DNA from: a virus
Taxonomy: Duplodnaviria > Heunggongvirae > Uroviricota > Caudoviricetes
Direction: 5' to 3' (one strand)
DNA length: 6,963 nucleotides
IMG/VR virus record: IMGVR_UViG_2740892431_000001
Shown: piece by piece, positions 928 to 6,963 of the stretch
Position numbering within the stretch: the stretch's first letter is position 1
Layout: each line of letters starts with the position of its first letter
Notes under the pieces: generated by a model
The model's input: only the letters and a program-made list of their open reading frames with translations
What the model was told of the DNA's origin: nothing
The model's database searches: none
Translations under genes and position numbers: made by a program

Positions 928-1533
928 TTACACTGGTGTGTTCAGCAAATCGTTAACGGCATCAGATGCCGGGTTACCTGCAGCCAGTGGTGCCGGTGCA
1001 CCCTGCATCAGACGATCCAGCGCAGTGTCACTGCGCGCCTGTGCACTCTGTGGTGCTGCGGCCAGAATGCGGCGGGCCGTTTCCACGGTCATTCCGGGGG
1101 TTTCTGCCAGCACGCGCGCCTGTTCTTCGCGTCCGTGAGCCTCCTCACAGTTGAGGATCCCCATAATGCGGCTGTTTTCTGCCGCAACCGCTGCGGTGAT
1201 CTGCGCGTTCACGTCCGGCTGCGCCGCGCTGGCGTTTTCGCCCTCCGTCGCTTGCACCACGTCAGTAACGTCAGCCTGCGAAGCGGTGGCTGAAACAGTT
1301 GTTGATTGAGTCTCTTTGGTCATTCGCCCTCCTGAGAGACGGGATTTACGTGCATCCAGTGCATCACGCATGACGGTGATCGCATCGGTGCTGTTAACAA
1401 GTTCATCAGCCAGTCCGGCATCAATGGCCTCCTGACCGCTGTACACTGCAGCCTCGGTATCCAGCACAGCCTGCACGGACAGGCCGGTATATGCCGACAC
1501 CTTCTGCGCAAACATCCGGCGGGTTGCATCCAT
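928..1533 (-). CDS. Nu3: Capsid scaffolding protein gpNu3 (201 aa), translated from an internal in-frame start within the C reading frame
   Basis: ATG at 1533..1531 gives MDATRRMFAQKVSAYTGLSVQ... through to the shared stop at 930..928. In lambda Nu3 is the in-frame C-terminal part of the C ORF. It lies downstream of all four duplications and so is intact. Confidence 0.8.
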   Translation of the reverse strand: MDATRRMFAQKVSAYTGLSVQAVLDTEAAVYSGQEAIDAGLADELVNSTDAITVMRDALDARKSRLSGGRMTKETQSTTVSATASQADVTDVVQATEGENASAAQPDVNAQITAAVAAENSRIMGILNCEEAHGREEQARVLAETPGMTVETARRILAAAPQSAQARSDTALDRLMQGAPAPLAAGNPASDAVNDLLNTPV

Positions 1534-1729
1534 CCGGGACTGCAGTGTCTCCCGGACGTCATCCGGAAGATGGCTGTAGGGGTTGCCATCCACCTTATGG
1601 CTGCCGCTGTAAATCAGCGTGATTTCCACGCCCTGTTTCTCCAGCGCAGCACCGTAATTACTGTGAGCCATCATGACGCCGATGGAGCCTGTCCGGGCGG
1701 TCTGCGTGACCAGACGCCGGGAGGCGGCA

Positions 1730-1905
1730 CTGGCAAGCAGCTGACCTGCGCTGCAGTTCATGTCATTGGCCAGCGCCCATACCGGCTTTATGTCACGCAC
1801 ACGGGCGATGATGTCAAGCTGGCAAGCAGCTGACCTGCACTGCAGTTCATGTCGTTGGCCAGCGCCCATACCGGTTTTATGTCACGCACACGGGCGATGA
1901 TGTCA
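1730..1905. repeat. Imperfect tandem duplication, 2 x 89 bp
   Basis: Unit at about 1730..1816 is repeated at about 1819..1905 (for example ggcaagcagctgacctgc at 1732 and 1821; gatgatgtca ending at 1816 and 1905). There are 3 mismatches. The period of 89 is not a multiple of 3. Both copies encode DIIARVRDIKPVWALANDMNCSAGQLLAS. Confidence 0.9.
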
Positions 1906-1919
1906 GCGCAGTCAAATGC

Positions 1920-2030
1920 CCCTGCCACCATCCCGCCTGGCGTATCCATATCGAGCAGAATGCCGTCCACCATCATCCCTGCCACCATTCCGCCGGGCGT
2001 GTCCATATCGAGCAGAATGCCGTCCACCAT
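1920..2030. repeat. Imperfect tandem duplication, period 57 bp (in frame, 19 codons)
   Basis: ccctgccaccat...gccgtccaccat at 1920..1973 is repeated at 1977..2030, with 3 mismatches. Both copies encode MVDGILLDMDTPGGMVAG, and ORF 1788..2159 reads ...GGMVAGMMVDGILLDMDTPGGMVAGAFDC... Confidence 0.9.
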
Positions 2031-2095
2031 CGGGTCACTGGCAGCCTGTTGCAGACGGGCGATAATGCCGTTGTAACCGGTCATCCCCGAATAAG

Positions 2096-2223
2096 GCTGC
2101 AGCGCCCGCGTCCGGCTGACCAGCGTACCGGACACCGGCAGCACGGCGATGCCGTTCACGGCTGCAGCGCCCGCGTCCGACTGACCAGCGTGCCGGACAC
2201 CGGCAGCACGGCGATGCCGTTCA
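2096..2223. repeat. Imperfect tandem duplication, 2 x 65 bp
   Basis: gctgcagcgcccgcgtcc begins at 2096 and again at 2161; gcgatgccgttca ends at 2158 and 2223. There are 2 mismatches. The period of 65 is not a multiple of 3. Both copies encode (V)MNGIAVLPVSGTLVSRTRALQP. Confidence 0.9.
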
Positions 2224-2252
2224 TGACCTGATAACTGCGGGCCTGCCGTGAT

Positions 2253-2386
2253 CGTGGTCCGTCGCCATCACCGACTAACGCCAGCGTCGCGGGTGCCTCT
2301 CCGGCAGTCAGGCTGTCACCGTGGTCCGTCATCATCAACGGATAACGCCAGCGCCGCGGGTGCCTCTCCGGCAGTCAGGCTGTCGC
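2253..2386. repeat. Imperfect tandem duplication, 2 x 67 bp, the most diverged pair
   Basis: cgtggtccgtc begins at 2253 and again at 2320; gggtgcctctccggcagtcaggctgtc begins at 2291 and again at 2358. There are about 7 mismatches. The period of 67 is not a multiple of 3. The copies encode DSLTAGEAPATLALVGDGDGPR and DSLTAGEAPAALALSVDDDGPR. Confidence 0.85.
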
Positions 2387-2511
2387 CGGATACCGCATCC
2401 GTCAGGCGGCTGATCCCAAGCTGGCCTGCAAGCGCACAAAAGAAAACCCGCGCATAGGCGGGTTCAAGCATCAGCGGCTCATTAAAGGCCATACTGGTAA
2501 TATGCGGGAGA

Positions 2512-6212
<3,701 letters not shown>

Positions 6213-6238
<26 letters not shown>

Positions 6239-6758
6239 TCAGCAACCCCGGTATCAGTTCATCCAGCGCGGCTGCTTTGTTCATGGCTTTGATGATATCC
6301 CGTTTCAGGAAATCAACATGTCGGTTTTCCAGTTCCGGAAAACGCCGCTGCACCGACAGGGGGATCCCGTCGAGAATACTGGCAATTTCACCTGCGATCC
6401 GCGACAACACGAAAGTACAGAATGCGGTTTCCACCACTTCAGCGGAGTCTCTGGCATTCTTCAGTTCCTGTGCGTCGGCCTGCGCACGCGTAAGTCGGTG
6501 GCGTTCGTACTCAATAGTCCCTGGCTGGAGATCTGCCTCGCTGGCCTGCCGCAGTTCTTCAACCTCCCGGCGCAGCTTTTCGTTCTCAATTTCAGCATCC
6601 CTTTCGGCATACCATTTTATGACGGCGGCAGAGTCATAAAGCACCTCATTACCCTTGCCACCGCCTCGCAGAACGGGCATTCCCTGTTCCTGCCAGTTCT
6701 GAATGGTACGGATACTCGCACCGAAAATGTCAGCCAGCTGCTTTTTGTTGACTTCCAT
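6213..6758 (-). CDS. Nu1: Terminase small subunit gpNu1 (181 aa; cosB-binding subunit)
   Basis: ORF 6213..6758 (MEVNKKQLADIFGASIRTIQNWQEQGMPVLRGGGKGNEVLYDSAAVIKWYAERD...) is recognisable as lambda Nu1. ATG at 6758..6756, stop TAA at 6215..6213. Confidence 0.95.
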
Positions 6759-6782
6759 TGCTCATTCCACGGACAAAAACAG

Positions 6783-6894
6783 AGAAAGGAAACGACAGAG
6801 GCCAAAAAGCTCGCTTTCAGCACCTGTCGTTTCCTTTCTTTTCAGGGGGTATTTTAAATAAAAACATTAAGTTACGACGAAGAAGAACGGAAAC
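6783..6894 (-). promoter_or_regulatory. cosB: cosB: the three gpNu1 binding elements R1 (6783..6794), R2 (6828..6839) and R3 (6883..6894)
   Basis: Plus strand has agaaaggaaacg at 6783..6794, cgtttcctttct at 6828..6839 and agaacggaaacg at 6883..6894. These are the lambda R-site 12-mers (CGTTTCC(T/G)TTCT), with R2 inverted relative to R1 and R3, at lambda-like spacing upstream of Nu1. Confidence 0.85.
6846..6880. promoter_or_regulatory. AT-rich segment between R3 and R2, where the IHF site I1 of cosB sits in lambda
   Basis: gtattttaaataaaaacattaagttacgacg is strongly AT-rich and lies between R2 and R3. The exact IHF core cannot be fixed without a motif scan. Confidence 0.45.
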
Positions 6895-6935
6895 GCCTTA
6901 AACCGGAAAATTTTCATAAATAGCGAAAACCCGCG

Positions 6936-6947
6936 AGGTCGCCGCCC
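6936..6947. other. cosN: cosN: the 12-nt cohesive-end sequence (GGGCGGCGACCT on the minus strand), here joined to right-end sequence
   Basis: Plus strand 6936..6947 is aggtcgccgccc, the reverse complement of the lambda left-end 12-mer. It is followed at 6948..6963 by cgtaacctgtcggatc, which reverse-complements to a sequence ending ...ACAGGTTACG, my recollection of the lambda right terminus. Confidence 0.85.
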
Positions 6948-6963
6948 CGTAACCTGTCGGATC

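Follow-up and report, generated by a model that had tools for sequence, protein, structure and literature searches.

The head module of a lambda-type prophage raises the question of whether its head protease gene is genuinely broken. In the 6,963 nucleotides of viral DNA that we analysed (hereafter the window, meaning this whole stretch), gene C is interrupted by four imperfect head-to-tail duplications of four different periods. This could reflect a rearranged and defective gene, or else sequence variants that were laid out in series when the record was made. Judging from the sequence, we consider it very probable that the four duplications are an artefact of assembly or of graph linearisation and not a biological feature, and that C only looks broken because two natural versions of the gene were written in series by an assembly graph with k=31.

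Results

Gene C as it stands in the record

The window comprises the left-arm head module of a lambda-type prophage on the minus strand, with Nu1, A, W, B, C, D and the start of E. Using the list of open reading frames (ORFs), Pfam and synteny, we assigned the lambda-type gene C (S49 head protease/Nu3 scaffold) to positions 928-2531 of the minus strand. Its neighbours on the same strand, recognised by ORF list and synteny, are both intact: the portal gene B lies upstream (2512-4113) and the head decoration gene D downstream (586-924). This placement of C between B and D agrees with annotated prophages and with lambda. Furthermore, the locus has in common with lambda gene C/nu3 the B-C-D-E order and the Pfam Peptidase_S49 domain, and the flanks in the window show about 98% DNA identity to lambda. 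Unlike lambda C, however, C in the window is interrupted by 284 extra nucleotides, an interruption that most likely belongs to the sequence record and not to the phage.

As written, C is 284 nt too long and is broken into four ORF fragments of 71, 60, 123 and 313 aa (positions 2316-2531, 2156-2338, 1788-2159 and 928-1869, minus strand, as given by the ORF list and the translations), such that the single ORF of about 439 aa typical of lambda gpC is not found. The 313-aa fragment matches Peptidase S49 (Pfam PF01343, E = 2.9e-44), and besides S49 the C fragments also match NfeD1b_N in Pfam. Cutting out the 284 nt restores an intact C of 439 aa. The identical protein, annotated as S49 peptidase WP_115740435.1, is encoded by gene C of an E. 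coli AF3 prophage (locus L001, see below). The window without these nucleotides is a module of 6,679 nt, equal in length to the aligned spans in complete genomes.

Gene B contains two tiny tandem repeats near its 5' end, in the N-terminal coding part on the minus strand, at 3961-3976 (8 nt, two copies) and 4086-4104 (9 nt, 2.1 copies). They score at the threshold of Tandem Repeats Finder (TRF) and are probably due to chance.

The four repeats

An earlier note on this DNA had read four head-to-tail duplications with periods of 89, 57, 65 and 67 bp from the sequence, and TRF bears this out with exactly four such arrays, located at 1730-1905 (period 89, 96% match), 1920-2031 (period 57, 94% match), 2095-2223 (period 65, 96% match) and 2253-2388 (period 67, 89% match). 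That they are confined to the N-terminal, protease-encoding part of C holds as well, a repeat search of the whole window having found no other direct repeats of at least 25 nt. Each array has two imperfect copies arranged head to tail, the identity between copies is 89-97%, and together the arrays span 1729-2384.

The true repeat units begin one base before the TRF starts, on an allele-specific SNP. They form the pairs 1729-1816/1818-1905, 1919-1974/1976-2031, 2094-2157/2159-2222 and 2252-2317/2319-2384, with one A between the members of each pair. Beyond the four duplications there is an additional stub of 6 nt, CCGTGA, at 2246-2251. This stub had been overlooked in the note's estimate of 278 bp added to C, and the added length is corrected here to 284 nt.

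The copies are two natural alleles

Each repeat pair joins a copy that is allele R of gene C with a copy that is allele V. E. coli AF3 (NZ_OZ547117.1) has both alleles as intact single-copy C genes in two prophages, R in the prophage at 933-944 kb (L001, used as reference for the positions given below) and V in that at 5,034-5,046 kb (L004). Compared over L001 5150-5700, R and V differ at about 19 sites within a stretch of some 450 nt. Allele V is common, being present at 9 of the 16 loci examined. The copies in the window agree with R or V at every site but one: position 2264 is a G, where all 16 reference loci have an A (reference 5548), and this is the sole base in 1700-2483 for which the AF3 alleles do not account. 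Either the V-type allele of the source has a private SNP here or the base is an error. The window and the R-type prophage of AF3 show 99.3-99.5% identity outside the repeats and less inside them, and window 1976-2158 shows 100% identity to V-type prophages.

All ten internal differences between the copies of repeats 1-3 are synonymous and fall on third positions in the original, undisrupted frame of C; in repeat 1, for instance, this applies to the three R/V differences within the TRF repeat (5251, 5266 and 5287). Differences that are exclusively synonymous are the signature of two functional alleles, and not of decay inside a frameshifted gene.

The head modules of the two AF3 prophages are near-identical, with A, W, D, E and FI proteins that are identical by accession, and their differences are concentrated in the N-terminus of C and the C-terminus of B. 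As such, they are the kind of prophage pair that would generate the artefact.

The layout is that of a k=31 graph

When k is 31, a de Bruijn graph fuses SNPs less than 31 nt apart into one bubble. From R and V we constructed the compacted k=31 graph and trimmed every unitig by its 30-nt overlapping prefix. The trimmed unitigs tile window 1629-2488 exactly and contiguously, except for one private base and setting aside the stub and the spacer As. At this k, the R/V SNPs form six clusters, at reference 5230-5287, 5331-5356, 5392, 5449-5482, 5536-5571 and 5608, and each branch extends from the first SNP of its cluster to 30 nt (k-1) beyond the last.

The tiling opens with a shared unitig (1629-1728) that leads into bubble 1, of which both branches are written, each covering reference 5230-5317: the R branch (R1) at 1729-1816 matches the R unitig exactly, and the V branch (V1) at 1818-1905 matches the V unitig exactly, with V bases at 5230, 5251, 5266 and 5287. 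A shared unitig of 13 nt (1906-1918) connects V1 to R2, which makes this an in-register switch from V to R. Bubble 2 (reference 5331-5386) is likewise present as R2 (1919-1974) followed by V2 (1976-2031). After a shared unitig at 2032-2036, the single-SNP bubble 3 (reference 5392) appears without duplication, as its V branch only (V3, 2037-2067), and is followed by a further shared unitig at 2068-2093. In bubble 4 (reference 5449-5512) the V branch comes first (V4, 2094-2157) and the R branch second (R4, 2159-2222). Behind the shared unitig at 2223-2245 stands the stub (2246-2251), whose first five nucleotides open the R branch of bubble 5 and whose sixth is an A, and the two complete branches of that bubble (reference 5536-5601) follow as V5 (2252-2317, with the private G at 2264) and R5 (2319-2384). 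The interval ends with a shared unitig at 2385-2390, one branch of another single-SNP bubble (R6, 2391-2421) and a shared unitig at 2422-2488 that reaches the end of the modelled interval. Hence only multi-SNP bubbles are doubled, and single-SNP bubbles are reduced to one branch. A sequence built from AF3 R and V by this rule agrees with window 1700-2483 at 783 of 784 positions.

The four periods follow one formula. The span of the SNP cluster plus 32 predicts 89, 57, 65 and 67, which are the observed values, and the duplications, taken in the earlier note to be independent, are not so, because a single SNP-based rule between two alleles governs all four. A random duplication would obey the span + 32 rule with a probability of about 1.3e-4, which gives about 3e-16 for all four. 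Furthermore, the copies of each pair end in the same 30-mer, exact matches between them reach at most 30, 30, 31 and 30 nt, and in the whole window one 31-mer and no 32-mer is repeated. The sole repeated 31-mer arises because the spacer A at 2158 equals the true base. We also considered k=32 instead of k=31 with a spacer and rejected it, the R1 and R2 unitigs no longer matching. In the branch written first, the base at the fork is always the alphabetically smaller one (A before G, C before T, A before C and C before T, respectively), which suggests a deterministic traversal.

A single non-templated A separates sibling copies at 1817, 1975, 2158, 2251 and 2318, and at four of these five joins it replaces a G, the next base of the preceding branch. 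The A at 1817 fits neither allele, R continuing with G and V having C before its branch. At 1975 both alleles have G at either candidate position, at 2318 both alleles have G, and the A at 2158 coincides with the natural base 5513. The spacer A may be a placeholder, for example an unknown base encoded as A, or a filled gap of 1 nt. The stub may represent an aborted branch or a third sibling; together with the private G, it falls outside the prediction of the simple two-branch rule.

The structure in other records

All matching records carry this stretch in single copy, that is 93 of 93 phage records and 3,286 of 3,286 records of complete E. coli genomes. When aligned with window 1500-2700, they fall into five pieces, which span 917 nt of record against 1,201 nt of query. 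Searches for the junction strings gave no exact match, neither for J1 and J3 in genome contig and viral contig collections nor for J1 and J4b in a metagenome contig collection. At the protein level, the in-frame repeat of 19 aa that derives from the 57-nt unit is in none of the 5.8 billion protein clusters searched. A protein search with the 123-aa fragment, which holds this repeat, gave single-copy relatives of 82% identity as best matches, none of them bearing the repeat. Exact look-ups of the 313-, 123- and 60-aa fragments of C in public collections found no match, and the loci returned for the portal protein all have an intact C of 439 aa.

The N-terminal C fragment of 71 aa recurs in 18 public contigs, at whose ends it forms a partial gene. 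Six of these contigs, from draft E. coli genomes (NCBI DA*, L017-L022), were checked, and all six stop exactly at window 2320. This position is junction 4b, one base from the R/V SNP at reference 5536, and the next 260 nt carry no mismatches. The common end point of the six contigs marks the SNP at reference 5536 as a place at which the graphs of short-read E. coli assemblies fork recurrently, and shows that the graph habitually forks there where a strain carries two lambdoid prophages.

The flanks

Outside the repeats, the flanks (1-1728 and 2387-6963) are a mosaic of known alleles in which every base is present in six natural references. These flanking 6.3 kb are free of private mutations and hence give no sign of a decaying element. 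The best match to the window as a whole is a prophage of E. coli MSB1_4I (99.5%), to which the backbone is also closest (99.9% on the left, 99.7% on the right). Positions 1729-2611 follow allele R, where MSB1_4I has V. The primary path may be a chimera of two prophages or a natural recombinant.

Discussion

We propose that two lambda-type head-gene modules, close relatives of each other, were present in the source sample, most likely as two prophages of a single E. coli chromosome. In the k=31 graph of their reads, single-SNP bubbles would have been settled to one branch, and in the four multi-SNP bubbles both branches would have been written serially, be it by the assembler, by a scaffolder or gap-closer, or by a subsequent linearisation of the unitig graph. 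The branches would each have lost their 30-nt overlapping prefix and a single placeholder A would have been set between siblings, an outcome that would mimic four imperfect tandem duplications and would introduce frameshifts into C. The real DNA would most likely consist of two loci, each with an ordinary C gene of 1,320 nt, and reads spanning the junctions are presumably absent. A concatenation step must be assumed in this proposal, because junction k-mers that the reads lack are out of reach for a pure de Bruijn assembler; we know of no assembler documented to write sibling branches serially with an A between them. Of the two origins that had been put forward in the earlier note, the laying out of variants in series during assembly is the one supported, in the form of concatenated branches of multi-SNP bubbles at k=31. 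A genuinely rearranged, defective protease gene is not, the copies of C being natural alleles and their layout being that of a k=31 graph.

The same artefact could have arisen from alleles of two strains or phages in a mixed sample, either a metagenome or a mixed culture, and not from one chromosome. Taken by itself the window fits either source, as do its mosaic flanks without private bases, but three observations make such a mixture rather unlikely. Co-resident pairs are common, for the number of match places per matching E. coli genome, with a median of 1, rises to 6 in some genomes and is 3 in MSB1_4I; AF3 carries exactly the pair of R and V; and the repeated contig break at the same SNP in isolate drafts points to paralogues within a genome.

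If the record instead depicted a real molecule, repeated out-of-register recombination or template switching between co-resident prophages would have produced four heteroallelic duplications and an inactivated head protease. Both parental alleles are indeed able to coexist in one cell, as in AF3, lambdoid prophages often recombine, and the flanks in the window are mosaic. However, no biological process stops every time 30 nt past the last SNP and restarts on the first one, the junctions carry a non-templated A and lack microhomology, and there would have to be five such events within 650 nt, of which not one is seen in 3,286 E. coli or 93 phage records. The k=31 regularity would then be a coincidence or the product of an unknown mismatch-guided mechanism, and we regard a real chimeric molecule as highly improbable.

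Even less credence can be given to a decaying prophage in which slippage or unequal crossing-over duplicated the segments in tandem and in situ, the copies diverging afterwards by mutation. The head-to-tail order and the 89-97% identity between copies superficially resemble old duplications. After a genuine tandem duplication, however, the two copies start out identical, and the differences that they acquire later fall at random as regards codon position and existing alleles; its breakpoints are independent of allele SNPs and often lie at microhomology. Here, all differences but one equal a pre-existing natural allele, drift in a frameshifted gene would not yield ten synonymous differences out of ten in repeats 1-3, and the flanking 6.3 kb have acquired no private mutations. 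Moreover, the restarts all coincide with the opening SNP of a cluster and the stops all lie 30 nt past its final SNP, with an untemplated A in between.

Hypermutation of the diversity-generating retroelement type, acting between a template repeat and a variable repeat, would likewise give near-identical repeat pairs with clustered substitutions, but can be dismissed, given that the substitutions are not adenine-specific (G/A, A/G, C/T, T/G, C/A), that the variants equal a known allele and that the window holds no reverse transcriptase, only the lambda head genes of a standard Nu1-A-W-B-C-D-E module.

The assembly artefact that we favour resembles heterotype false duplication, an error known from assemblies of heterozygous eukaryotes (Ko et al. 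2022, Genome Biol 23:205, PMC9516828). In both, two diverged versions of one locus are kept side by side, k-mers are copy-specific, a gene gain or disruption is mimicked and divergence acts as the trigger; the likeness here is one of sequence, the drop in read depth and the lack of concordant reads across the junction being properties of that class. R and V exist independently of each other, as separate intact genes in AF3 and in many other genomes, and in better assemblies, namely the 3,286 E. coli and 93 phage records, the locus is single copy. Unlike in heterotype false duplication (PMC9516828), the versions would be paralogous prophage copies of a bacterium, or two strains, and not haplotypes; the duplicated pieces are single unitigs of 56-88 nt and not kilobases; and between the copies stands one A instead of a gap of Ns.

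The Logan unitigs and contigs (PMC12424806) are designed around k=31, with distinct 31-mers. Like the bubbles of a compacted k=31 de Bruijn graph, the repeats in C are bounded by the first SNP and by the last SNP + (k-1), have the 30-nt shared tail and leave essentially all 31-mers distinct. Correct graph traversal, however, picks one branch or breaks the contig, whereas here both branches are serialised and an extra A is added. The Logan paper (PMC12424806) makes no mention of such a serial-branch artefact.

The biological interest of the locus is small, and its practical value is that of a quality-control example. Taken at face value, the record would suggest a defective prophage whose head protease has become a pseudogene, and its spurious short ORFs would find their way into protein catalogues. 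Errors of this class can be diagnosed by adjacent near-identical segments that differ from each other solely by bases of a second known allele, by an exact shared tail of k-1 bases, by a period equal to the SNP-cluster span + k + 1 and by one filler base between the copies. A contrasting example of genuine prophage decay is the related prophage of E. coli NCTC86 (L005, NZ_CP019778.1), whose annotation gives the large terminase subunit as frameshifted and whose major tail gene is interrupted by an IS66-family element.
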